61,245 nucleotides of DNA, filler included, from 8 parts of 8 records of this genome joined end to end with filler, not necessarily neighbours in it; one strand, 5' to 3'. Positions 229 to 61,245 are shown, counted from the first letter of the whole stretch. Numbers and translations are program-made. The notes: generated by a model from the sequence alone, not told the origin.

Positions 229-1527
229 TTAGCTCATCTGTTCAATAACTTCTTCTTCCTCTTCATCAATTTTTGGAGGAACAGGATATGAATGCTGTTC
301 AAGTAATGTGCGTGAAAGAACACCACCTGTATCATTAGCATATACCCTATATACTTTTACGTGATACATATTATTATGCTCTTCTATTACACTTTTTACG
401 TACGTGTATTCTAATGATTCAACAGAATATATTTTGCAGATAAGCCTATGGGAATTATTCGTATTATCATATTCCAAATCCATAATAACAGGATTGGTAA
501 AATTATTTGTGAGGATTAAATCCTTGTCAATATCAAGTACCGCTTCTTGACCATATGGATAATTTTCCATATCGCTTGTTATATAATCTGCTACATAATG
601 TTCATCAGCGGATATACCAACTTGGTGTGCACATCCTAAAATAATGGATGGAACATGAAGGCTTTTAAAACTGTACACATTAGGGTTATACTCATCATAC
701 TTAATGAATTCTTTTATACTTATGCTTTGACTTGGCATAATAAGTATTGGTTCAACTAAATCATTTATTTTTTGCAAATCACTAGAAGGATTGTAATACT
801 CCACACCAAATTCATCTGCTTTTGTGGGGAAAACTTGAGAATAGATATTAGGGGTATCTGCCATATTCATTAGTGATTCAGTTGTAATATCAGGATCTAT
901 TATTTCCATAACTGCATAAATATGAGATGTTTTGGCTACCAATGCTTCTTGCACTGCTGTAGCAGTTTCCCTAACATTTATTTTATATCCTGTTTCGCCA
1001 GAGGATACTATCAGTTTAAGTTGCCCATCAGCAAAACTGTAATCCATAAGTTGGGCATCTGAAGGTGCAGTATAAAAAAGGTGTTGATTTAATTCTATAA
1101 AATTATAAATATTCTGCCAGCTTAAAATGGTTTCGATATCAATATTTACTGGCTTGAATTTCATCTTTATCAAATCAAAATAGCTAATAGGTAAGCTGTC
1201 GCGGTTAGTATTATAAGCTTTTTCAACAAGAGTATCTACATCAATATTTGCAATATTCGATGCGTGAACAGTAAGTTCAATTTCTCCATTAATTACTATT
1301 GTATTATTGTCTAAAAGTAAATCAGATAAATCGTTTACAATAGATTCCTTTGCTTGTGATTTAGTCATTCCGCCGACATAATACCCATTAATGTAAACGC
1401 CGGGGAGTATTTTGTCGCTTGTAGTATGATAAGAAAATAGTACCATCTGTGAAAGCACGCAAATTACAATGACTAAAGTAATTAACGTACAGTAAAGAAT
1501 GATTTTTTTATTGTTGCTTAGTTTCAT
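229..1527 (-). CDS. VanW/YoaR-like membrane-anchored protein with peptidoglycan-binding domain
   Basis: N-terminal TM, ILPGVYINGYYVGGMTKSQA motif, and a degenerate VanW region (YPYGQEA...DLILTNN). The ORF is open to 1581. Confidence 0.65.
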   Translation of the reverse strand: MKLSNNKKIILYCTLITLVIVICVLSQMVLFSYHTTSDKILPGVYINGYYVGGMTKSQAKESIVNDLSDLLLDNNTIVINGEIELTVHASNIANIDVDTLVEKAYNTNRDSLPISYFDLIKMKFKPVNIDIETILSWQNIYNFIELNQHLFYTAPSDAQLMDYSFADGQLKLIVSSGETGYKINVRETATAVQEALVAKTSHIYAVMEIIDPDITTESLMNMADTPNIYSQVFPTKADEFGVEYYNPSSDLQKINDLVEPILIMPSQSISIKEFIKYDEYNPNVYSFKSLHVPSIILGCAHQVGISADEHYVADYITSDMENYPYGQEAVLDIDKDLILTNNFTNPVIMDLEYDNTNNSHRLICKIYSVESLEYTYVKSVIEEHNNMYHVKVYRVYANDTGGVLSRTLLEQHSYPVPPKIDEEEEEVIEQMS

Positions 1528-1663
1528 AAGGCTATTATATATTATATTATTATTTTTTGGAAGATAATTATATTTTTTCATATTTTATAATTTGCAAGAA
1601 GATGCGCAAGATGCTATAATCAAAACTGATTTTGTGTGTAAAGCAGGTGTAATTATTAACAAG

Positions 1664-2023
1664 TTGGCAAAAAAAACGGATATTATTTTAGGAGTTGCTG
1701 TTTTAATGCTGGCTCTTATTGTTTCATTTGTTTTTTGGCTCAGTCCTTTTGAAGGGCAATTGTATGCATGCGTATATATTGACGGTGAATTTATTGAAAG
1801 TGTACCCTTGCAAACTGAGCTCAATCAAATAGATATAAAAACCCAATATGGAACAAATATATTAATTATAATAGATAATAAGGTTTATGTTAAAGAATCT
1901 GACTGTGGGCTTGAACAATGCGTTAACAAAGGAGCGATTTCACGACCTATGCAGTCAATAGTGTGTGCACCTCATGGACTTGTTATAACTATAGAGGATG
2001 AAAGAAGCGCAAAGGATAAATAA
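1664..2023 (+). CDS. NusG domain II protein (DUF1312, EetA-like)
   Basis: TM followed by GTNILII...VKESDCGLEQCVNKGAISRPMQSIVCAPHGLVI. Start uncertain; the ORF is open from 1592. Confidence 0.85.
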   Translation: MAKKTDIILGVAVLMLALIVSFVFWLSPFEGQLYACVYIDGEFIESVPLQTELNQIDIKTQYGTNILIIIDNKVYVKESDCGLEQCVNKGAISRPMQSIVCAPHGLVITIEDERSAKDK

Positions 2024-2024
2024 A

Positions 2025-2549
2025 TTGGGAAAAGTAAGTTCAAAGAAGAATAAAAAAAGCAGACTATTATTACTAGGTTTGTTAGTTATAGTATTGTTCG
2101 CCTTAGAAACGCTTTTTTTAAGTAACATTACTAAAATAGAAGGTGTAAGGATAGGTCTTTATAATATATTTATAGTTTTTGCTATTATGAATATTAAACC
2201 TAAATACGGATATGTTTTAGCAGTAGTTAAAATTGTAGCAAGCCTTTTTATTGTATCGACTGTTTTATTATATCCATTATGCGGTGGACTGTTAAGTGTA
2301 ACTGCAATGGTTATTGCCAAAAAATTATTTAATGAAAAAATCAGTTATTTAGGAATTGGAATTATTGGAGCAATTACTTATAATGTAATTATATATTTAA
2401 TTGCTGCTGCTTCCCTTTCAAGTTTAGCTGTTTTTTATAATATTCCTATGGTATTATTTTTAAGCGTAATATACGGAGCAATAACAGGCGGGTTGGCGTA
2501 TTTACTAGAGAGAAGCAACGTATTTCGCTTAAGGAGTGATGTTGAATAA
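2025..2549 (+). CDS. Gx transporter / heptaprenyl diphosphate synthase component I family membrane protein
   Basis: Multi-TM with GVRIGLYN and GGLLS motifs; canonical partner of NusG-II. The ORF is open from 1998. Confidence 0.8.
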   Translation: MGKVSSKKNKKSRLLLLGLLVIVLFALETLFLSNITKIEGVRIGLYNIFIVFAIMNIKPKYGYVLAVVKIVASLFIVSTVLLYPLCGGLLSVTAMVIAKKLFNEKISYLGIGIIGAITYNVIIYLIAAASLSSLAVFYNIPMVLFLSVIYGAITGGLAYLLERSNVFRLRSDVE

Positions 2550-2656
2550 TTCATTTATGCAACATTCAAAGCAGTAGATATAGTATGATTTCAGCATACT
2601 ATTGACTATATTTATTAGGGAAATGTTGAATAATCCATTTATTCAACTGTCCCTTA
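2538..2656. repeat. Pair of palindromic REP/MITE-like elements flanking a third hairpin
   Basis: GATGTTGAATAA-TTCAT-TTATGCAACATTC (2538-2567) and GGGAAATGTTGAATAA-TCCAT-TTATTCAACTGTCCC (2618-2653), with an ATAGTATG/CATACTAT hairpin between them. Confidence 0.6.
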
Positions 2657-2672
2657 AGACATGGAGAAAAGA

Positions 2673-3602
2673 ATGAAAAAAAGTAAAAAAATAATTATTG
2701 TAATATTATCTATTTTAATAGTATTAACTTCACTTGTTGCATATGCAAGTAGTGCTTTAAGACTTGGGGTATTAAACCCTGGTTTTTATACTAATTTTAT
2801 GCCTGCAATTAATGCATATGACAGTATGTATGATAGTTTCACGGAATATCTATTAGAGCCTATTCAAAGCATGGAAGTTCCAGAAGAAATACAAGGGGTT
2901 CCAGAGGATTTGATTAAGATCGCTATACCTAAAGAGGACTTCAATAATAAAATTGGTAAGACTATAGGTGGTGCTATTGGCTGGTTATTATATAATCATG
3001 ATGAAGTTGAAATTCCTGTTAAATATTTCGCGGACAATTTGTATACAGCCATAGCAAATGATGAAAGAGTAATAAACAGCGAAACAAATATTAAAGCTAC
3101 TATGGATGCAATTGTTGCTCAAAGACTTGAAATATTTGCAGCTGGTGAAGAATATGAACAAACACTTAGAGGATATATATATTATTTCTTATCTTCAGGC
3201 TCACAAGAACGTATGGACTATTTTGATTATTGGACTGATATATGGTTTAATTACTATGGTATTAGGTTAAGTGTAATTACCTATATATCGTTAGGCCTAT
3301 TGGTACTACTAATGGTTTTGTTAATATTAGTGGCTAAAGAAAAGAGGGAAACGCCTATAAAGCTTGCAAAAGTTTTATGTATTTTATATGGAACGCTGAA
3401 TGTATTGGCTGCACTGGTATTATTCTTAATTCCTTGGATAGTAAAACTATTTGATAGTTTGTCTTCATATGCAGAATATATTGATTATGCAAAGACAATA
3501 ACTAACTCATTTGGAGCTTTAGCTTTGGTATATGCATTGCTGTTGTTTGCATCAGCAATAATATTAGGAATCGTACAAAGAAAAGTGATTGCAAAGGATT
3601 AA
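2673..3602 (+). CDS. Hypothetical membrane protein (1+3 TM with large extracellular loop)
   Basis: Long ORF with hydrophobic segments and a GGAG RBS before ATG 2673. Confidence 0.7.
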   Translation: MKKSKKIIIVILSILIVLTSLVAYASSALRLGVLNPGFYTNFMPAINAYDSMYDSFTEYLLEPIQSMEVPEEIQGVPEDLIKIAIPKEDFNNKIGKTIGGAIGWLLYNHDEVEIPVKYFADNLYTAIANDERVINSETNIKATMDAIVAQRLEIFAAGEEYEQTLRGYIYYFLSSGSQERMDYFDYWTDIWFNYYGIRLSVITYISLGLLVLLMVLLILVAKEKRETPIKLAKVLCILYGTLNVLAALVLFLIPWIVKLFDSLSSYAEYIDYAKTITNSFGALALVYALLLFASAIILGIVQRKVIAKD

Positions 3603-5387: not shown

Positions 5388-5487
5388 NNNNNNNNNNNNN
5401 NNNNNNNNNNNNNNNNNNNNNNNNNNNNNNNTTAATTAATTAANNNNNNNNNNNNNNNNNNNNNNNNNNNNNNNNNNNNNNNNNNNN
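5388..5487. other. Artificial contig spacer
   Basis: N44-TTAATTAATTAA-N44. Confidence 0.99.
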
Positions 5488-12856: not shown

Positions 12857-12956
12857 NNNNNNNNNNNNNNNNNNNNNNNNNNNNNNNNNNNNNNNNNNNN
12901 TTAATTAATTAANNNNNNNNNNNNNNNNNNNNNNNNNNNNNNNNNNNNNNNNNNNN
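12857..12956. other. Artificial contig spacer
   Basis: N44-TTAATTAATTAA-N44. Confidence 0.99.
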
Positions 12957-18272: not shown

Positions 18273-18372
18273 NNNNNNNNNNNNNNNNNNNNNNNNNNNN
18301 NNNNNNNNNNNNNNNNTTAATTAATTAANNNNNNNNNNNNNNNNNNNNNNNNNNNNNNNNNNNNNNNNNNNN
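18273..18372. other. Artificial contig spacer
   Basis: N44-TTAATTAATTAA-N44. Confidence 0.99.
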
Positions 18373-28539: not shown

Positions 28540-28639
28540 NNNNNNNNNNNNNNNNNNNNNNNNNNNNNNNNNNNNNNNNNNNNTTAATTAATTAANNNNN
28601 NNNNNNNNNNNNNNNNNNNNNNNNNNNNNNNNNNNNNNN
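28540..28639. other. Artificial contig spacer
   Basis: N44-TTAATTAATTAA-N44. Confidence 0.99.
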
Positions 28640-35200: not shown

Positions 35201-35300
35201 NNNNNNNNNNNNNNNNNNNNNNNNNNNNNNNNNNNNNNNNNNNNTTAATTAATTAANNNNNNNNNNNNNNNNNNNNNNNNNNNNNNNNNNNNNNNNNNNN
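35201..35300. other. Artificial contig spacer
   Basis: N44-TTAATTAATTAA-N44. Confidence 0.99.
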
Positions 35301-45166: not shown

Positions 45167-45266
45167 NNNNNNNNNNNNNNNNNNNNNNNNNNNNNNNNNN
45201 NNNNNNNNNNTTAATTAATTAANNNNNNNNNNNNNNNNNNNNNNNNNNNNNNNNNNNNNNNNNNNN
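45167..45266. other. Artificial contig spacer
   Basis: N44-TTAATTAATTAA-N44. Confidence 0.99.
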
Positions 45267-51369: not shown

Positions 51370-51469
51370 NNNNNNNNNNNNNNNNNNNNNNNNNNNNNNN
51401 NNNNNNNNNNNNNTTAATTAATTAANNNNNNNNNNNNNNNNNNNNNNNNNNNNNNNNNNNNNNNNNNNN
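51370..51469. other. Artificial contig spacer
   Basis: N44-TTAATTAATTAA-N44. Confidence 0.99.
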
Positions 51470-53537
51470 CCGGCATCTGCAGATCCATCAGCACGGCATC
51501 ATACGGCGTGCCGTGTGACAGGGCCTGTTTTATCGATTGTAGCGCTTCCAGACCGTTTTGGGCGTCCTGCACATCTATTTCCACGGCCTCCAACAATTCA
51601 ACGGCCACTTGCCGGTTGATTTCATTGTCTTCCACCAGAAGAACCCGGGCACCGCCGATCGTCTGCACCCCTTCAACGGGGTTTGGTAAATACCGGGATT
51701 TAACGGTTTCACCCATGTCGGATTTTCCGAAAACCTCCATGACACTATCAAATAACAAAGAGCGATTCACAGGTTTTACCAAAAATCCCTCGATCCCCAC
51801 GGACAGGGGGTGTTTCAATATCTCTTCCCGACCGTAAGCGGTCACCATCAAAATGTGCGGAATGTGCAGCAGAGTGTTGTTTCCCTTTATTTTACGAGCC
51901 GCTTCAATGCCGTTCATTCCCGGCATTTTCCAGTCCATGAGCACCAACTGATATGGCGTTCCATGGATGGTCCGCTCAAGTTCAACAATGGCTTCCGGCC
52001 CGGAAGCCGCTTGAGTGACATCAAAGGAAAAGGACTCCAGGGCATTACAGAGAATTTCCCGAGCCACGGGATTGTCGTCCACCACCAGGGTTTTCAAGCC
52101 GTGTAGCTCTTCCGGACAAATCAACGGTTCGTCCTCTTCATTACCTGTACGGTCAAAGCAGGCGGTGAAAATAAATTCACTGCCCTTGCCGTAATTGCTC
52201 TTCACCTCTATCCCGCCCCCCATCATCTCCACCAGGCGCTTTGAAATATTCAAGCCCAAGCCGGTTCCGCCGTATTTCCGAGTGGTGGAGGTATCCGCCT
52301 GTGAAAAGGACTCGAACAGATCTGACATCTGCTCTTCGGTCATGCCGATTCCCGTATCCTTGACGGAAAATCGTAAGACAATATTACCTTCAATACTGCC
52401 TTCCGAATCGTTTTTTGCCATACGGGCATCTTTTTTATCCATTTCAATTTTAACGTGAAGATGCCCCTTTTCAGTAAATTTGACGGCATTATTGCATAAA
52501 TTGATCAACACCTGTCCCAATCGCAGCGGATCACCCGAAAGCGTCAAGGGAACATCTCTGTCCACATTGAACAACAGTTCGATTCCTTTTTCATCGGCTT
52601 TCATGGTGATCAAGTTGGATAAATTATCCAGCACATCCTCGAGATTGAAGGGCACCGATTCCATTTGGAGTTTGCCGGCTTCAATTTTGGAAAAATCGAG
52701 AATATCATTGATAATCCCCAGTAAAGACTGGGCGGAGCACTCGATTTTTTTCAGATAGTCCTGTTGTTTTTCCGTCAGTTCGGTTCTAAGCGCCAGCCCG
52801 GAAAGGCCCATGATGGCATTCATGGGGGTGCGAATCTCATGGCTCATGTTCGCCAAAAAGCGACTTTTGGCCTGATTGGCCTCTTCCCCCTTTTTAAGGG
52901 CCGCCTCCAATGCCAGGTTTTTTTGATCCAGCTCCCGGGTTCGCTCCGCCACCTTGGATGTCAGTGTACGGTTGTACTCTTCGAGCTTTTCATTGCTCTC
53001 TTGCAGTTTCACCCCGGTTTTTCGGAGGGTTTCCACCAACACTTCATTGTGATGAATTTGATGATGATAATCCACGGCATGCTCCAAAATTCCCAGCAGC
53101 ACATGGAAATTGCTCCCTTTGGTCACATAACCAAACGGGCGAAATTCGTTCATCACATCGTAGGGATCTTTCAGATCCTGATAGGCGGAGTGAAAAATAA
53201 TGGGCAGGTGAATGTAGAGCTGTTTCAGCTCTTTAAAGGTTTGAAACCCGTCTTTTTCCATCTTGATATCCAGAATGACGGCTGCCACATCCCCGCTCAC
53301 CGCCGCCACTCCCTGGTCGCCGTCGGAACAGGTGATGATCCTGAATTTGTCCCTCAACACCAGTTGAAGGGACTCCCGGATACCGGCATCATCGTCGATG
53401 ATCATTATCAGGGGGAGTTCATCGGTCCGGGCAAAATGTCCGGGGGACGACCGGCCGGTCAGCGGTTCGCTGGATTCGGTTTTATCTTTTAAATCAGATG
53501 TTCTTTCACGAAAGATATCAAATTCATCCACAGGCAT
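51470..53537 (-). CDS. Hybrid histidine kinase REC-HisKA-HATPase-REC-REC (3' truncated)
   Basis: [27 protein letters not shown] and three receiver domains. Start ATG 53537 follows GAGGA. Confidence 0.93.
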
Positions 53538-54003
53538 GGGAGACGTCCTCGTATTTTTGAAATGCGGTTTGAATGGTGACCAGCAGTTCCGAAACCGAAT
53601 ATTCTCCTTTGGTGAGGTATCCGTCATGGGGAAGTCCGGCAGTCGAGTCGGCATGGGCGTTGTCACCGGGATAGGCGGAGTGGAAGATGATTCGAATGTT
53701 CGGATTCAACCCTTTGAGCAGACTGAAAATCGTAATCCCGTCTTTTTGGGCCATTTTGATGTCCAGCAACGCCACTTTGACTTTGGCGGCCACGGCCTCG
53801 GCATCTTCAAAACAGTGGTGTGCCGACAGGCGATAGTGGGGTTTCAGAACCGTATGCAATGCCTCTATGACCTCGGGATTGTCATCGATGATCAACAGAT
53901 CTTCCTTGACTTTGGAGGTCAGCGATTCCGGGGGCTCTCTGAAAATCGAATCACGTATGGATTGAATGGTTTCCATGGCTTCGGATTTCCTCATTTGGAT
54001 CAA
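53524..54003 (-). CDS. Single-domain response regulator
   Basis: IIDD, LLDIKM, FHSAY and YLTKG. Confidence 0.88.
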
Positions 54004-54030
54004 CTTCGGTTACGCAATCTCTATGCAGGT

Positions 54031-57000
54031 TTACAGGTCTACCGGTAATTTCACATTAAAAGCGGCTCCATGTCCCAATTCGCTCTCAACAAAGATATCT
54101 CCCTTATAGAAAGAGATGATTTTCCTTACCACTCCCAAGCCAAGACCGGTACCGGTTTCGGGCTTGGTGGAAAAAAAGGCCTCGAAAATTCGGGGCTGAT
54201 GCTCAGCGGAAATTCCCACACCATTGTCACTCACTCGGACTTCATAACTAAGATCGGAAGCACTGGAAACAATTCGGATCTTTCGCGGATGATTCGCCGG
54301 CAATGATTCATCCAGCACGGCATCCCGGGCGTTCAAGATCAGATTTGAAAAAACGGATATAAAATGAGACTCTCTTCCGGTGATACGGCTGTTGTCGGCC
54401 GTCAATTCAATTTCCAGTTCAATGCCGTACCCGGCAAAATCGGATCGATATCCCTGTACCACGTCAAAAATGAGTTGATCCAGATGAAGGGTTTGACCAT
54501 TGGCGGTTTCCCGACCCAGGCGGGCATAATCCATGATTTGCTGGGTAATGGACAACCCCTGGAACACGGATTTATACGTGATATCCAGCACCTCATCCAC
54601 ATACTCTTCATTGGCAAATATTTTTTTCATGGTGGTCAGGACGTGATCCATATCCTCATCCGGCAGACGCCCTTTCAGGTAGAGAAAGATCTCTTTGAGG
54701 CTCCGACTGTTTTGCAAGGATAAACTGACATGGGGTTCAGGCTTGTCATATCCCAACGCCTGCTCAATGACCAGTTTCGACCCCACCAGGGCATTTCGCA
54801 TCTCATGGGCAAACCCCCCGGCCATCTGCTGCTCTGTGGCCTCTTTTTCAAGGGCAACAATCTGATCGTGCGCTTCGTTAAGCGCCTCTGTGCGCTGTTT
54901 TACCTTCTCTTCCAGGTTTTCCACCAATTCGGTGTTCTCCATGGAAATGGCGATCTGGGCCGACAGAATCCGCAACACCTCAAGCCTGGCTTCGGTAAAA
55001 GCCCCTTCAACCAGATTGTTCTCCAGGTACAAAATGGCAAAGAGTTCCCCTTTACTCAAGATCGGAAAGCACACTACGGATTTCGGCTGTTTTTTTCGAA
55101 TGTAGGGATCTTTTGCATAATGGCTCTCTTTACCGATATTCACAAATACCAGCTCTTCTTTGGTTCTGGCCACAAGATTGACAACGGATAAGGGAACGCT
55201 CCCGTACTCTTCCACAGCCAGGGACTGCATCACGCCGGTTACGCCGTCAACGTTGCCTTCCGCCTGAATGATGAGTGAGTCATTTTCACTTTTAATCAAC
55301 AAACTTCTTTGGGCACCGGCATTCTCAATGAGAATCGCCATCATTTTTTCCAGCAGATTTTTGAGTTTGACCTCCCCGGAAAGGGTTTGGGAAGCTTTCA
55401 TGATGCTTTGGATATCTAAGGCCGATTCCCTTGATACTTTAGGTTCTCTTGCCGATGTGATTGGAACACTTGGTTCGAGATATTTGGGATAACTGTTTTC
55501 CAGATGCTTTACCTTGGCGGTTGCCCCCATCGCCGGTAACAGTGGTACGCTTCCAGCAGAAAGAAAGAAGCGGATCTGGATTGCCCCGCTCCATATAAAA
55601 CTTTGCAGCCAGTTCACCGGCCAAAGCAGCCTCGTTGATATAACTGTTTTCATATGCCGTTTCCATGGCCTTTTCGTAAAATCCCGCCGCTTCGGTATGA
55701 TCCCCAGTTATTCGAAAATATTCAGCCTGCAACAAATAAAATTTATGCAAAAAATTTACCCGGCCGAACTCCGCCCATTCCTCAAGGGTTTTCATAGCTG
55801 TTACAGCTTTATTGAGGTAAATTTCTTTTTCATTGGGATCGGATGTTATGGTGTAAAGGCGCATGTAGGCCAAAGGAACATAAAACAGCGTATCACTGAT
55901 GACATAAGTCATGGGGACATTGAGATTGGTTCCATTTATCTCAGCGTCCGACAAGTGACTCGGAAGATCCTTATCCTCTTCAAACAGATAGGCGAGGATG
56001 ATGTTTTTAATATTGATCTGCCAGGTGAAGAGTTTTATCGTTCCCTCCTGGTGTCCTTGGAACAACTGTTCAAGATCGAGTTTCAGGGCGCCGGGATTTT
56101 CACTCTTCCCAAGTAACGCCTCATTATACGCAATTTCCAATGTCAGCGGCGGGGTCAATACCGATTGGTTTAATTGAATGATGCCGTTTAGATTGGCCTT
56201 GGCTTTTTCTCCGATTTGACTCAATTGCGTATCCGTACGGCTGAGGCACATAATATAGTTGGTAAGCATGTAGGCGGCATATTCAAAATCCCCAACATTT
56301 AAAGTGACAGGGTAGTGATTCATCATTTTTTGACAAACGTCCTGAAAATGGTGCTTTTGTCCAAACGTGTAGATGCATATAAATGCCACCGAACGTCCTT
56401 TGACCTCCTCATTACCAACCCCTTTATCCATCAATTCAAGTGCTGTATCGCTCAATTGATACGCGCTGACGATGTCCCCCATCAAAAGCCGAACAAAGGC
56501 GAAAAATGCAATGAGGTAGGGCGTCTCCTGTGAAAGTCCCTTTTTTAAAGTCAGCTTCATCAAATGGCCGACCACCACGGGAATAAGCTCGGTACCCGCC
56601 CAGATAAATGCCACTGCACCGATGTAAAACAGTCGCATTACCAGTTGATTGTCACTCTCTTTCATCCAAGAAAGCCGCTGAATGGATTCAACACCTTGTT
56701 GCGCCAGTATGTCATTGATTTCAGTTAGAATTGCCACGGTTTGCTCTTGCGTCGGGTTTCTCGGGATTTCAATATCCAGAGAAGCAAAAATTGCCAGCAA
56801 CGCATCAATGGCCCGAAGCGGTTGGTTTTGTGCAATGAGACTGAGCAGACGATACTCATAAGCGATGGAGCGCTCCTCCATGGCGTGTGTCGAAACCAAC
56901 ACGGTTTCAACCAAAGAATCCATCTCTTTAAAATCACCGCTGAGATAGGCGATTTGAACAGCTTCGTCATGGAGGGCCAGGGTCAAACCATGCTGGGTCT

Positions 57001-59325
57001 GCCAATGCCCCGACGGCAATAGACGGATTGCGCTTCGAATATATTCTGCGGCAAGTTTATACGCCGCAGATACTTTTGCGTGTCGTCCGGCCCGTAAGTT
57101 CAACTCCGCCAACTCCAACTTTTGGGTTTCATCGTCGATTAGAGCCATGCCGACATTCAAATGATTCACGACATTAAACAGCATCTCTTCCCTGTCTGCG
57201 GAGTGTAATGTCTCTTCAAGGGTTTTATAATTATCCAGCAATAAAAAACCGATTTTCAAATGCAGGGGAGGCCTGGCTTCTTGAGAAATCATGGAGTACG
57301 CTGCTTGCTGGATGCGATCGTGGATGAAACGATAATGGCCGGCATGTTCAGGCGTCAACAGCTGTTCCATGGTTGCGGCTTCAAGGGCGGCTTCCAAATA
57401 TTCGATACTTTTTCTCGAAATAATACTCAGGGTGGGGATGTCAAACCGATTACCGATACAGGCGGTCAGCTTCAAGATCTCCTGAACGTCGGAAGATAGC
57501 CCTTCGATCTTATTGCAGAGCAATTCAACCACATTGTCCGTAAGGTTTTTCTTTTTAATCTCGGTCAAATTCCATACCCACCGTTCTTCCCCGTGGTCGA
57601 ACTTTAACAGGTTCTCCTTAAACAGATTTTCAAAAAATGGATCGTAAAAAACGCATTACCTCCGGTTTTTTCATAAATGAGTGTTGATAGTTCCAACACC
57701 ATTTTTCTATGCGCCCCTTTTCTTATTCGTAATGTATCGGCCACCCAATCCTGGATGTTTTCGAATGAAAGATTTTCCAAAGGTATGGTGTTGACGGCAA
57801 TATGGTGTTGTTGAACCTCCTTCAACATCATCATCAATGGATGCACCGGAGAGACCTCGTTATCCCGATAGGCACCGATGAATAAAAGAGAATCGGTTTG
57901 CCGGTTCTCCATTAAAATCTGAAGCAAGTCCAATGAACCGGGATCTGCCCACTGCAGATCATCGATAAACATGACAAGCGGATGATCCTTGACGGATATG
58001 GCTTCAAAAAACCGTTGAAACACATAGTTAAATCGTCTTCTGGATTCATCACCACCAACAGTGGGAACATCCGGTTGCGGACCGATCACCGCCTCCAGTT
58101 TCGGAATAATGTCCGTCAATACTTTTCCCGATTGCCCCACTGCTCTTAGGATTCTCTCTTGCCAACGGATCAATTCACGCTGTTTTTCCGACAGCACCAG
58201 TCGACAGAATTGATTTAGGGCCTGTATAAAAGCGGCATAGGGGGTCGTCCGCTGCAATGGATTGAACTTTCCACTAATAAAATATCCATTGTCTTTGGTG
58301 ATCGGCCGATGGATTTCATTCACCAACGCCGTTTTTCCGGTACCGGAATAACCGGCAATCATCAAAAGCGTCTTACCGCCCTCCCTGACATCCTGATAGG
58401 CCTTCAATAGGTGGTCTATTTCTTCTTTGCGACCGTATAGTTTTTCAGGAATCCGGGGGATTCCGGAAATGTCTTTCTCCCCTAATTCAAAATCCGCCAT
58501 TCCCCACTTTTTCACCTTCTCCAAATCGTACTTCACCCCTAAGGAGGACTGGTAACGATCTTCCGGGTTTTTCGCCATCAGTTTTAAAATGATATCGGAA
58601 ATCACAGGGGGAATATTGGGATTTACGACATTGGGAGGTTCTGGCTCCCGTGCCAAATGGGCATATATCATTTCATTTGAATCTTCAGAAACAAAAGGAG
58701 GTTGACCCGTGGCCAATTCATAAAAGACCACACCGGCACTGTAGAGATCTGCCCGTTGATCCACAGTATGGTTCATACGCCCGGTTTGTTCCGGTGAAAT
58801 GTATGCCAGGTTTTCGGGGATACGCGTGACACTCTCATAGTATCCGATTTTCAACTGAATTTTGGATGCCCCGAAAAAATTGATTATTTTCAGGCTTTTT
58901 GTGTCAGGATCCCAGACGATATTTGCGGGAGTAATGGAGCCGTGGATGATATTCCGGGAATGGATGTCGGACAGTCCACTTGCGATGCCGTGTGCCAGCT
59001 CCACAAAAAGCGCCGTATTGAAAGACTTTAAAGGTAAATTGTCCTGCATCAAAGAACCGGGGGCATCCGCCATGACAACGGCGGGGAAAACAGAATGCTC
59101 GATCCATTCAACAGCGTCAATCACATTTTGAGAATCCACCTCTTCAAGAAAATTGAACTCTTGATGCAATTTTTTCACAATAGTTGGATCGGATGCACTC
59201 TTTTTTTCCAACAGCTTGATCATGCAGGGGCGATTATGGACAGTATGAACGGCGCGGTAGAGTAACGTATCGTCGTCTTGATGAATTACCTCTTTCAGTT
59301 GAAAATCCGGTATCCTCATCGTCAT
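54031..59325 (-). CDS. Giant S/T (pseudo)kinase-AAA ATPase-helical-GAF-histidine kinase, about 1765 aa, split by three homopolymer frameshifts
   Basis: YISPEQTGRMN, GYSGTGKT, FIDDLQWAD, WGATAKV, GAF (YLENN...AFT), AHEMRN and GTGLGL. Single-base losses near 57630, 55585 and 55526 restore one frame. Confidence 0.88.
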
Positions 59326-59467
59326 ACACCTCGGTTTTTGATGTAGTCGGTTAATTCAAAAATGGGGGATGCCCAAATCCATTGAAACGGTGAAAGCAAC
59401 GCAACACGCTACCCCTAGATCTAAGACCGATCATCAACAGGATCGGGACACGCTCCCCAAATTACGA

Positions 59468-59977
59468 TCAACAAGAACTTAGAATAATTTCAGCTTCAGG
59501 TGCATTCTTGAATTTATACTCGGTGAGCAAATCCGTCTCCATTGTGAAATACGGCATTACGATCACCATAGTATCACACTCATCCCGTTCAAAGGGAATA
59601 TCTACATTGAGTAGACCGGCATCCACCCGCTCGGAAACTTTTTGATTCAGCTTTCCATTTTGCTCAAAAACACTTTCGGTAATGGATAAAGGTCCTTCAA
59701 CATATTGCACCTCTCCTTTGTCTTTGTGAAAACTGGCAACGGGCCACCGAGTTCCATACGGGTCCAATTTGACAATGGCATCTTCGGGTATTTTCATTCC
59801 GACAAATTCTTCCAGCAACGGACGCGGATCACTCTCAAAAAATTCACGGATCCCTTCATTGGCGATGCAAGATGCCATCAACAGCATGTAACGTTCACAG
59901 ACCTTTTGCAATTTGAACTTGGGGTGAGCTTCTTCGAGCAATGTCAAAATGTTGTCCAATTTCATACTTTCAGCCAT
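59468..59977 (-). CDS. Nitrile-hydratase-leader-like (NHLP-like) protein; candidate radical SAM substrate; possible Sec readthrough to 59462
   Basis: LMASCIANEGIREFFESDPRPLLEEFVGMKIPED resembles NHLP leaders; ends EIILSSC-TGA-TCG-TAA; GAGGA RBS before ATG 59977. Confidence 0.65.
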   Translation of the reverse strand: MAESMKLDNILTLLEEAHPKFKLQKVCERYMLLMASCIANEGIREFFESDPRPLLEEFVGMKIPEDAIVKLDPYGTRWPVASFHKDKGEVQYVEGPLSITESVFEQNGKLNQKVSERVDAGLLNVDIPFERDECDTMVIVMPYFTMETDLLTEYKFKNAPEAEIILSSC

Positions 59978-60128
59978 AATTTTCCTCATAAATTAAGGTT
60001 TGGGGTATTTTCCGGAAATGAACCGGAAAGGGTGGTATGAAAGATTTCAATTCGTACCCAATCCACTGTCAGTGAATTTTCGATAAATGAAATCGAATCA
60101 TTCTTAGCGTGCCCGTATCCATGAAGAT

Positions 60129-61245
60129 CTAAATATAGGCAGTCTCAAACTGTGTCAATAGTAATGAAGATGCCGTGACAAGGGGAATGTACCAATCGTC
60201 GACAGCGATACCGAGCTTCTCTTTTACGGCCCAGCTTTGGTACTCTGTTTCCTGAAACTTTGCAGACACCATGATCTCCCTTGCCGTATCAAAATCGAGC
60301 ATATGGTGTTTTGTTTTCCCTGAACACGGCCGGGTATCCGCAACCAAATATCCGTTTGCAAAGGGCTTCATCACCAGATACGATTCTTTCCAGGATTTTT
60401 TCCATTCCGCCACTTTCGCAGCGATTTCCCGGATCAGTTCAGGACAATCATGGGCGCCGCTGGGATAATCTCCGATAAACCGATAGGCTGATCGGCTCAC
60501 ATCGATGTGATCGGGATAGACCATTTGATAGACCGCCCAGGGCCTCAGGTTCTGGATATTGTGTTCTTTCGGGTGCTCGAAATAGGTGCAGAAGCGATCC
60601 AAAGACAAATGCCGAAAAACCTCGGGAGGATTTAAATGATACAAGAGTGGCAACAAATCAACTGTTTCCCTGTAATCTTCGATCCGGTCATTTGGAAACC
60701 CCCAAAGCAGGTTATATGAGACAAAGAGTCCCAAAGCAGCGGCATTTCTCAACAATAATATATTTTGACGGACAGTTGCCCCTTTGTTGATGCTTTTCAG
60801 CAAACGGTTGGACAACGCTTCAATACCCGGCTTGATCACTTTGATATTGGTTTTTTTCAGATCGATGAGCTCCTGAAGGGTGAAATCCGCACGCAGCTCA
60901 CAAGTCTTGGACGAGGCGGCTGAACAACTGCCGAGCATCGGCAGAAGGTCTTTGCAAAAATCGGCAGGGAGCATCTTGTCCACAAACAATATGGGGTAAT
61001 TGGGGTATTTTTCCGAAAGGAACTCCAGCTCCTTGGCCACTTTATGTCGTGTTTTTTGTCGGAATGCAGCACGCTTGCCGTTCATCCCGCAAAACCGGCA
61101 TTTGCCCCACTCGCATCCCCGGGTGGCTTCATACCCCAGGGTAATCCCTTTGAGCGGACGCTCTTTAAAGAACGCCCCCATTTGATCAAAATAACTTTGA
61201 TACTCCGGCAAAGGGACGGCATCCAGATCCAGGACAGGATCTCCT
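60129..61245 (-). CDS. RiPP-maturation-type (B12-dependent class) radical SAM protein (5' truncated)
   Basis: EATRGCEWGKCRFCGMNG (CxxxCxxC), PGIEALS, YNLLWGFP, LYHLNPP and LDRF. Confidence 0.85.
   Translation of the reverse strand, partial: GDPVLDLDAVPLPEYQSYFDQMGAFFKERPLKGITLGYEATRGCEWGKCRFCGMNGKRAAFRQKTRHKVAKELEFLSEKYPNYPILFVDKMLPADFCKDLLPMLGSCSAASSKTCELRADFTLQELIDLKKTNIKVIKPGIEALSNRLLKSINKGATVRQNILLLRNAAALGLFVSYNLLWGFPNDRIEDYRETVDLLPLLYHLNPPEVFRHLSLDRFCTYFEHPKEHNIQNLRPWAVYQMVYPDHIDVSRSAYRFIGDYPSGAHDCPELIREIAAKVAEWKKSWKESYLVMKPFANGYLVADTRPCSGKTKHHMLDFDTAREIMVSAKFQETEYQSWAVKEKLGIAVDDWYIPLVTASSLLLTQFETAYI

Follow-up and report, generated by a model that had tools for sequence, protein, structure and literature searches.

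What is a peptide-modifying enzyme doing beside a giant cytoplasmic kinase? The question is raised by the last contig (51470-61245) of a 61,245-nt stretch of DNA, here called the window, where a B12-binding radical S-adenosylmethionine (radical SAM) enzyme, a small protein and a giant kinase-ATPase protein are encoded next to one another. Comparison with related loci indicates that this contig carries a conserved cytoplasmic module, of which it has the downstream two-thirds. A YcaO cyclodehydratase, a radical SAM enzyme of family TIGR03975, the small protein, a giant Pkinase-AAA_16-GAF protein and two-component parts make up this module, and the grouping is much firmer than the mechanism that we propose for it below.

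The module genes fill the last contig, all five being on the minus strand; their order is radical SAM enzyme, small protein, giant kinase, response-regulator receiver (REC) protein and hybrid histidine kinase. The first-pass annotation had described them as co-directional and closely spaced, which they are, with spacings from a 14-nt overlap to gaps of ~150 nt. The radical SAM gene (60129..61245) loses its 5' end, ~270 codons, at the contig end. A gap of ~140-150 nt separates it from the gene of the 169-aa small protein (59468..59977), which starts with ATG at 59977 preceded by a GAGGAAA ribosome-binding site, and a second gap of this size separates the latter from the giant gene (54031..59325). 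This is one gene of ~1765 aa, encoding a pseudokinase-AAA_16 (STAND-type ATPase)-helical/TPR-GAF-histidine kinase protein. The REC protein of ~150 aa (53524..53976; Pfam Response_reg 41.9 bits) follows after ~55 nt, and its start at 53976 was set by homology to the 142-aa REC protein of a Desulfamplus locus (76% identity). Its gene overlaps by 14 nt with that of the hybrid histidine kinase (51471..53537; REC-HisKA-HATPase-REC-REC...), for which Pfam HisKA, HATPase_c and three Response_reg stretches were found and 53537 is a likelier start than the GTG at 53666. The hybrid kinase is 75% identical to residues 1-685 of its Desulfamplus ortholog; the contig end cuts its 3' part at 685/985, and the Hpt domain, present in the ortholog, is thus missing. 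Thus, Pfam and TIGR03975 matches agree with the identities first given to the radical SAM enzyme, the REC protein, the hybrid kinase and the kinase-AAA-GAF-HisK protein, the last after frame repair. The signalling proteins had also been described as free of transmembrane segments, and in a hydropathy scan, used here in place of a dedicated transmembrane predictor, none of their 19-residue stretches exceeded a Kyte-Doolittle value of 1.81, the maximum lying in the helical domain.

The deposited giant gene reads as three open reading frames (ORFs) in three frames: one of 573 aa with Pkinase and AAA_16, one of 709 aa that is helical, and one of 540 aa with GAF and HATPase. A tblastn search with the intact 1769-aa Desulfamplus ortholog placed its residues 3-570, 568-1251, 1253-1272 and 1259-1769 in frames -1, -3, -2 and -1, respectively. 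A 14,884-nt Logan contig (run X1) spans the whole 51470-61245 stretch with zero base substitutions and carries one added base behind each of 57631, 55583 and 55523, all three sites being homopolymers. With these bases the giant gene is a single ORF of 1765 aa. The frame splits are best read as consensus errors, and the frameshifts were dropped as a pseudogene mark. Run X1 may be the source sample, so that the Logan contig represents an independent assembly and not an independent sample. It runs 5,102 nt past window position 61245, upstream of the cut radical SAM gene, and the missing YcaO gene should lie in this extension. The Logan contig also has an in-frame TTT behind 53252, in the hybrid kinase gene, which gives one residue more than in the window.

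Conservation of the gene neighbourhood, which the first-pass annotation had proposed as a check, was found in every case: the small protein is encoded directly upstream of a Pkinase-AAA_16-GAF giant in 6/6 loci, the window included. The related loci (L001, L002, L008, L009 and L010) bring the total to three lineages, whose small proteins show 83%, 49-54% and about 30% identity. L001, from a Desulfamplus metagenome-assembled genome, runs collinear with the window, its proteins being 72-83% identical, and encodes REC, a YcaO cyclodehydratase fusion, radical SAM enzyme, small protein, 1769-aa kinase, REC and hybrid histidine kinase-Hpt. On the metagenome contig L002 (small protein 49-54% identical), the order is radical SAM, YcaO, small protein and kinase. 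L008-L010, from three genomes of one bacterial family (small protein ~30% identical), encode a SiaC-family protein, a hybrid histidine kinase-REC-Hpt protein, REC-GGDEF, the small protein, a Pkinase-AAA_16-GAF-SpoIIE giant, the radical SAM enzyme and YcaO. Their small protein has 161 aa and ends ...EIILTSC, and their giant has 1757 aa with HRD and DFD motifs intact. One of these genomes matches a protein named by NCBI as uncultured Desulfobacter, and L008 and L009, the one pair compared, are ~95% alike.

Between lineages, the identities were 52-58% for YcaO, 39-48% for the radical SAM enzyme, 42-47% over ~1490 aa for the kinase and 42% for the hybrid histidine kinase; the upstream REC protein of L001 is 47% identical to the receiver portion of REC-GGDEF. 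The YcaO and radical SAM genes stand in different orders between lineages, and the flanking genes differ by genome, among them those for ribosomal L21 and Obg, for corrin methylases, a TPR protein, glucokinase and alanine racemase. Neither a transporter nor a peptidase was found in the fetched flanks of the related loci, which extends the earlier remark that the window shows no exporter or peptidase. In L008, two corrin/porphyrin methylase genes of cobalamin synthesis type (1472-3528) lie 3 kb upstream of the module; this was seen in one genome only and may be a coincidence, but the radical SAM enzyme of that module is B12-dependent. The REC-GGDEF protein of L009 (8523-9752) and L008 (8472-9701) carries a C-terminal 4-oxalocrotonate-tautomerase-like domain (PF01361, 44.2 bits), an odd fusion, and the L010 copy is shorter (349 aa).

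Pairing of the small protein with the kinase was also visible among database matches. Five small-protein/kinase pairs share the same source and an identical size of the longest contig: P0002/P0074 (2,481,701 nt), P0016/P0090 (7,584 nt), P0193/P0084 (9,604 nt), P0023/P0086 (16,349 nt) and P0024/P0091 (14,381 nt). No partner among the best 120 kinases listed was found for P0008, P0011, P0012, P0015, P0017, P0027 and P0030, which come from contigs of 7-19 kb. Over nine pairs, identity among the small proteins tracks that among the kinase domains, with a Mantel r of 0.84 that is partly driven by close relatives and was reached by 2 of 5000 permutations.

The modifying enzymes belong to established families. 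The window radical SAM fragment (371 aa, 5' cut) matched TIGR03975 (rSAM_ocin_1), a maturation radical SAM C-methyltransferase of peptides that are made ribosomally and modified post-translationally (RiPPs), the match covering profile positions 230-551 of 606 and scoring 277.9 bits (cut-off 281.85). Full-length orthologs reached 389.3 (L001), 384.1, 375.9 and 381.3 bits, and the L002 copy, which is also cut, reached 313.2 bits. Against the L001 ortholog (649 aa), the fragment aligns with residues 268-634 at 82% identity. Its Cys triad (C44, C49, C52) is invariant in 5/5 aligned orthologs; the window and L001 share the spacing C-x4-C-x2-C, and the remaining orthologs have C-x7-C-x2-C. The B12-binding domain PF02310 scored 20.7 bits in the L001 enzyme (cut-off 32.1), and the window protein lacks that N-terminus by the contig cut. 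No YcaO match was found by tblastn anywhere in the window, because the contig ends inside the radical SAM gene. The first-pass annotation was thus right that the window has no YcaO, but all five related loci encode a fused E1-like/YcaO cyclodehydratase of TOMM (thiazole/oxazole-modified microcin) type together with the TIGR03975 enzyme. These YcaO proteins scored 256-272 bits with TIGR03604 (cut-off 219) and 136-139 bits with TIGR03882 (cut-off 36.9), the 'TOMM precursor leader peptide-binding' domain, which is therefore above its cut-off. The L001 cyclodehydratase (752 aa; TIGR03604 270.9 bits, TIGR03882 135.8 bits) is encoded upstream of the radical SAM gene. Standard cyclodehydratase and export machinery beside the radical SAM/small-protein pair had been named at the outset as a sign against the candidate system; the former stands beside the pair in five loci, and the latter does not.

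The small protein is the least familiar component. Neither Pfam nor NCBIfam gave a match to the window protein at E <= 10, and a word-indexed search of 5.8 billion proteins gave only 7 matches. A profile search of 1.84 billion representatives found 66 clusters at E <= 0.001 (34 at E <= 1e-10), nearly all of 150-190 aa and matched over the full length. It had first been called similar to the nitrile hydratase leader peptides (NHLP), and this name survives for one part of the protein. The NHLP leader family TIGR03793 gave sub-threshold matches in 2/8 close members and 27/59 distant members (the latter with E 9e-8 to 8e-3, 16-32 bits, best 31.9), whereas the window protein itself had no match at E <= 10 and the cut-off of 50.9 bits was reached by no scanned relative. 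These matches always fall in the N-terminal helices, so that 'NHLP-like' is fair for the first ~70 residues only, where the sub-threshold homology suggests a remote, clan-level likeness to NHLP leaders. TIGR03795 (cut-off 41 bits) had no match in the 8 close members (E <= 10), in the 59 distant members (E <= 0.01) or in genome G001; searches of G001 with TIGR03793 and TIGR03795 were empty, and so were those of control genomes.

Beyond the leader-like part, the protein has a beta-rich domain of ~100 aa. AF2 models built from 8 and 44 sequences agree, with a mean predicted local distance difference test score (pLDDT) of 83.4 and 85.6, respectively, and a pLDDT > 90 at residues 30-120 in the 44-sequence model. 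Foldseek searches (pdb) with the two models gave no fold relative at E <= 0.001. A wide VIA-align search with whole models gave best Z scores of 4.6 (FF domain) and 5.2 (galectin carbohydrate-recognition domain, root mean square deviation 4.8 A over 78 residues), which are too weak to name a fold. The C-terminus is more telling. The window protein ends ...EIILSSC, and this tail is invariant among close relatives. By eye, most of the C-termini listed for the family end in ...E[IV][IV]L[ST][STC]C(C), and the conserved pattern over a longer stretch is ...P[FY]F...D.L.E.KF.D..E[IV][IV]L[ST][STC]C, at times with a second Cys. Few stretches of the family are as well conserved as the tail, which is not hypervariable, and no Gly-Gly leader cleavage motif (as defined in PMC2887384, Table 3) is conserved in the 44-sequence consensus. 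An assignment as a nitrile hydratase alpha subunit was dropped: one of 59 relatives matches TIGR01323 (16.7 bits), and no CxLCSC-type motif is visible.

The family is sparse. No match to two of its members was found by tblastn in 72,556 plasmids. In the sampled genomes, G001 was the only carrier among 401 of its order (narrow profile) and among 401 of its phylum, and a search at the level of the bacterial family found a member in 4/161 genomes. Each locus has a single small-protein gene, with one match per genome in G001, G820, G822 and G827. In addition, P0004 (169 aa, a close homolog) and P0201 (158 aa, a distant paralog-type protein) come from the same source, each with a longest contig of 4,110 nt, which hints that some organisms may have two family members side by side, like the NHLP-Burk systems considered below. 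Around the small-protein gene, the intergenic RNA 3' of it had a folding z of -1.2, and its alignment with L001 gave no conserved element. A scan for promoter-like sites (3 vs 9.4 expected) and terminator-like sites (10 vs 7.4 expected) was uninformative.

The giant protein retains the Walker A (GYSGTGKT), Walker B (FIDD) and histidine kinase H-box (FAHEMRNAL) motifs. Its protein kinase domain was first described as a pseudokinase, and the alignment agrees: HRD is replaced by HGS (HGSITPAN) and DFG by NFF (NFFG), so that both Asp residues are lost, with the beta3 Lys and alphaC Glu retained. The corresponding motifs are HSYMSPIN and NFIG in L001, and HGAITPAN and NFFD in P0074. Both catalytic Asp residues are retained in 118 of 122 kinase domains (the best 120 relatives, the window and L002), the exceptions being the window, L001/P0073, P0074 and P0121. 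By its motifs the window protein is a pseudokinase, and the loss is a derived trait of its clade; a domain that is catalytically dead in this clade could only bind. The Pkinase-AAA_16 architecture itself is very common (7,666/8,000 scored candidates at E <= 1e-10), with outputs that vary among HATPase, SpoIIE, cyclase and GGDEF. When the small protein was modelled in complex with kinase residues 1-570, without family alignments, the score was 0.00 and spoke neither for nor against an interaction.

Taken together, these observations suggest the following mechanism. YcaO, through its leader-binding domain, would dock on the small protein at the NHLP-like N-terminal helices and would then cyclise the C-terminal Ser/Thr-Cys tail to one or more azolines, while the radical SAM enzyme would C-methylate the tail. 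With no cleavage and no export, the product would be a folded intracellular protein with an unusual C-terminal group, which may serve as a ligand, co-sensor or regulated partner of the giant STAND-type kinase. In the window clade, the signal would pass from the histidine kinase domain to REC and on to the hybrid kinase. In the Desulfobacter-type loci, a live kinase and PP2C would probably determine how far the SiaC-family protein is phosphorylated, and thereby diguanylate cyclase activity and cyclic di-GMP, by analogy with the SiaABCD system. We give an even chance to the reading as a whole, namely that the tail of the small protein is modified and that the protein is kept in the cell and works with the giant kinase. 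That the modified protein acts in the cell as a ligand or redox switch, as the first-pass annotation proposed, we infer from gene content. A more specific version is tentative and somewhat unlikely: the tail would be a heterocyclic, possibly metal- or redox-active prosthetic group on a sensory subunit or ligand of the giant (pseudo)kinase, gating the phosphorelay or cyclic di-GMP synthesis.

Several points weigh against this mechanism. In the AF2 models the last residues form a short strand (168-172 and 168-170 in the two models; pLDDT 60-64 in the last block) and not a free tail, and such a strand, if real, would limit access of the enzymes to the tail. The loci contain no dehydrogenase; unlinked SagB-family (TIGR03605) genes occur in 4/4 genomes, far from the loci, but this family is also present in 5 control genomes, so that the rings may be azolines or their oxidised form. 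Because the transporters that export NHLP-type precursors are often encoded elsewhere, the missing local exporter is weak evidence. The giant kinase architecture is so common that most of its members cannot depend on such a partner. The three lineages all belong to one bacterial family or to metagenomes, and the gene context covers a minority of the 66 clusters, all but ~55. The window itself has no YcaO gene.

An ordinary secreted TOMM or proteusin-type peptide would account for part of the same evidence, with its protease and ABC transporter unlinked and the kinase and phosphorelay regulating production or immunity. The enzymes are indeed of standard RiPP families (TIGR03604/TIGR03882 and TIGR03975), the N-terminal region has its NHLP-clan likeness, and the genes of NHLP precursors can be distant from those of the transporters (Haft 2010, PMC2887384, Figure 2 legend). 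However, the protein lacks a conserved Gly-Gly or other cleavage motif, its presumed core would span 3-5 residues that are conserved and not hypervariable, and the stretch of ~100 residues from the leader-like part to the tail is modelled as a confident fold. All five fetched loci lack a transporter or peptidase, and none of the signalling proteins, having no clear transmembrane segment by hydropathy, could sense an external peptide. We therefore regard a secreted product as unlikely. Modification of a different substrate, such as the kinase or a response regulator, with the small protein as an adaptor or chaperone (e.g., a nitrile-hydratase-like scaffold), is less probable again. Large proteins are substrates of YcaO and B12-radical SAM enzymes in other systems, with family models for McrA thioamidation (TIGR03266) and MCR glutamine methylation (TIGR04014), both of which are weaker matches here, and the modelled C-terminus of the small protein is partly strand. 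On the other hand, YcaO carries a TOMM leader-binding domain and the small protein is the sole NHLP-like protein in the loci; its Ser/Thr/Cys-rich end is a textbook cyclodehydratase target and ranks with the family's most conserved features.

The kinase domain could itself be biosynthetic, as in class III/IV lanthipeptide synthetases, phosphorylating the tail Ser/Thr residues for elimination with the rest of the giant as a scaffold. Weak lanthi_synth_IV matches (53.4 bits in the window, 82.4 bits in L002) point in this direction, as do the catalytic Asp residues retained in L002 and the Desulfobacter-type kinases. These matches, however, are far under the cut-offs of 650 and reflect a generic kinase fold, no lyase or cyclase domain is present, and both Asp residues are lost in the window, L001 and P0074 with the module otherwise intact, which makes such a role very improbable. 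Chance adjacency of an abundant kinase family and a RiPP-like cassette has scarcely any probability left: the architecture is extremely common, yet the adjacency holds in 6/6 loci of three lineages despite reordered enzymes, unrelated flanks and a differing output domain, and orthologous hybrid kinase and REC genes accompany the module. An intracellular modified protein working with the giant kinase is thus the reading that we carry forward.

The rest of the window does not bear on the module. The 61,245 nt consist of 8 contigs of 5.3-10.2 kb with 7 joints, each made of N44, a 12-nt stop linker and N44, and seen as N runs at 5388-5487, 12857-12956, 18273-18372, 28540-28639, 35201-35300, 45167-45266 and 51370-51469. 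The last of these (51370..51469, no strand; N44 + TTAATTAATTAA + N44) is an artificial joint, to the right of which lies a separate contig of 9,776 nt. The GC content of this contig is 0.470, as opposed to 0.303-0.368 in the other seven, and its tetranucleotide correlation with them is 0.33-0.62, compared to 0.81-0.95 among themselves. Its closest relative is the Desulfamplus contig L001, with a GC content of 0.467. The compositional contrast suggests a mis-binned contig of another organism, and the last contig is probably from a different organism than the remainder of the window. Since it is a separate contig and a compositional outlier, the genes to its left are not its neighbourhood. In run X1, the summed depth was 480-830 at window positions 52449-53100 as opposed to 105.6 elsewhere, with short contigs of other organisms stacking on the HisKA/HATPase part of the hybrid kinase; this peak is a conserved-domain effect and carries no copy-number signal.

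Two puzzles meet in this module, namely the giant cytoplasmic kinase-ATPase-GAF proteins, which number in the thousands and for which passages of a 2025 review record no known input (PMC12599244), and the kinase-linked TOMM clusters predicted in 2010. The module offers a compact, conserved and apparently export-free pairing of the two with readable outputs, either a histidine kinase and phosphorelay or PP2C and SiaC/GGDEF. If the proposed mechanism is true, RiPP-like modification of a protein tail would be an intracellular signalling device, YcaO and radical SAM enzymes of 'natural product' type would also build sensor cofactors, and a first class of ligand would be at hand for a very common bacterial kinase architecture.

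We compared the module with known systems. In Pseudomonas aeruginosa, SiaABCD is a partner switch that controls a diguanylate cyclase. The Desulfobacter-type loci resemble it: they encode a phosphoprotein of the SiaC family (PF09345, 126 bits) and a GGDEF protein that resembles SiaD below threshold (159 bits), and they have both a protein kinase and a PP2C phosphatase, which are one polypeptide here. However, the match to NF038265 is 88.9 bits (cut-off 150), the kinase, of Hanks type, forms a fusion with a STAND ATPase, and neither the window nor L001 has a SiaC or GGDEF gene. The NHLP-leader RiPPs or proteusins share with the module a nitrile-hydratase-like leader region and the radical SAM family TIGR03975, to which the full-length orthologs score 376-389 bits; TIGR03793 precursors and TIGR03975-type C-methyltransferases are linked to polytheonamide-type pathways. 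In contrast to these RiPPs, the family here has sub-threshold TIGR03793 matches, no Gly-Gly motif, no hypervariable core and no local transporter, and the product of the module is probably a whole protein.

The giant protein fits the description of the CP1 kinases, which are linked to COG3899 ATPases and to GAF or PAS domains, cytosolic, ~40% pseudokinases and of a function not known, according to passages of the 2025 review (PMC12599244). Its likeness to this class, matched by description and not by CP1 profiles, lies in the Pkinase, AAA_16, GAF and HATPase domains, the lack of a clear membrane segment and the degraded catalytic motifs, and NCBI names this architecture 'trifunctional serine/threonine-protein kinase/ATP-binding protein/sensor histidine kinase'. 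The review, in which neither 'RiPP' nor 'lanthi' occurs, names no RiPP-like partner, whereas the kinase here is tied to a small modified-protein cassette.

The closest parallel is NHLP-Burk, the 'two-chain TOMM' system (TIGR03795) of Burkholderia, Delftia and Acidovorax (PMC2887384). Its clusters with a TOMM kinase/cyclase fusion (TIGR03903) were predicted from genomes (Haft, Basu & Mitchell 2010, PMC2887384), and passages of a 2015 survey repeat this account without new function (PMC4603692); no functional study of these kinase-linked clusters was found in the literature searched. Nor was a paper found on a module such as the present one, subscription journals and preprint supplements lying outside the coverage. 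In both systems a long precursor-like protein, related to nitrile hydratase and with Cys or Cys-Cys at its end, is accompanied by a cyclodehydratase-docking fusion (here in 5/5 related loci) and by a very large neighbour of Ser/Thr-kinase type (6/6). TIGR03903 aligns with the kinase and AAA_16/helical parts of the L001 giant at 122.1 bits (profile 483-870), compared to 89.7 bits for the window fragment; neither reaches the cut-off of 705.75, and Pfam finds no cyclase domain. In a protein atlas, an RNP_Burkhold cluster is among the weak look-alikes (score 0.80). The differences are equally clear. NHLP-Burk has a tandem pair or fusion, as opposed to a single gene without a TIGR03795 match here, and only the present module has the ~100-aa beta-rich domain, a B12-radical SAM enzyme in its core and a host in the Desulfobacterota. 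Furthermore, the giant carries GAF and a histidine kinase or PP2C output in place of the cyclase, and dedicated phosphorelay or SiaC/GGDEF genes accompany it. The module is thus an uncharacterised new branch of a kind that was first noticed in 2010.

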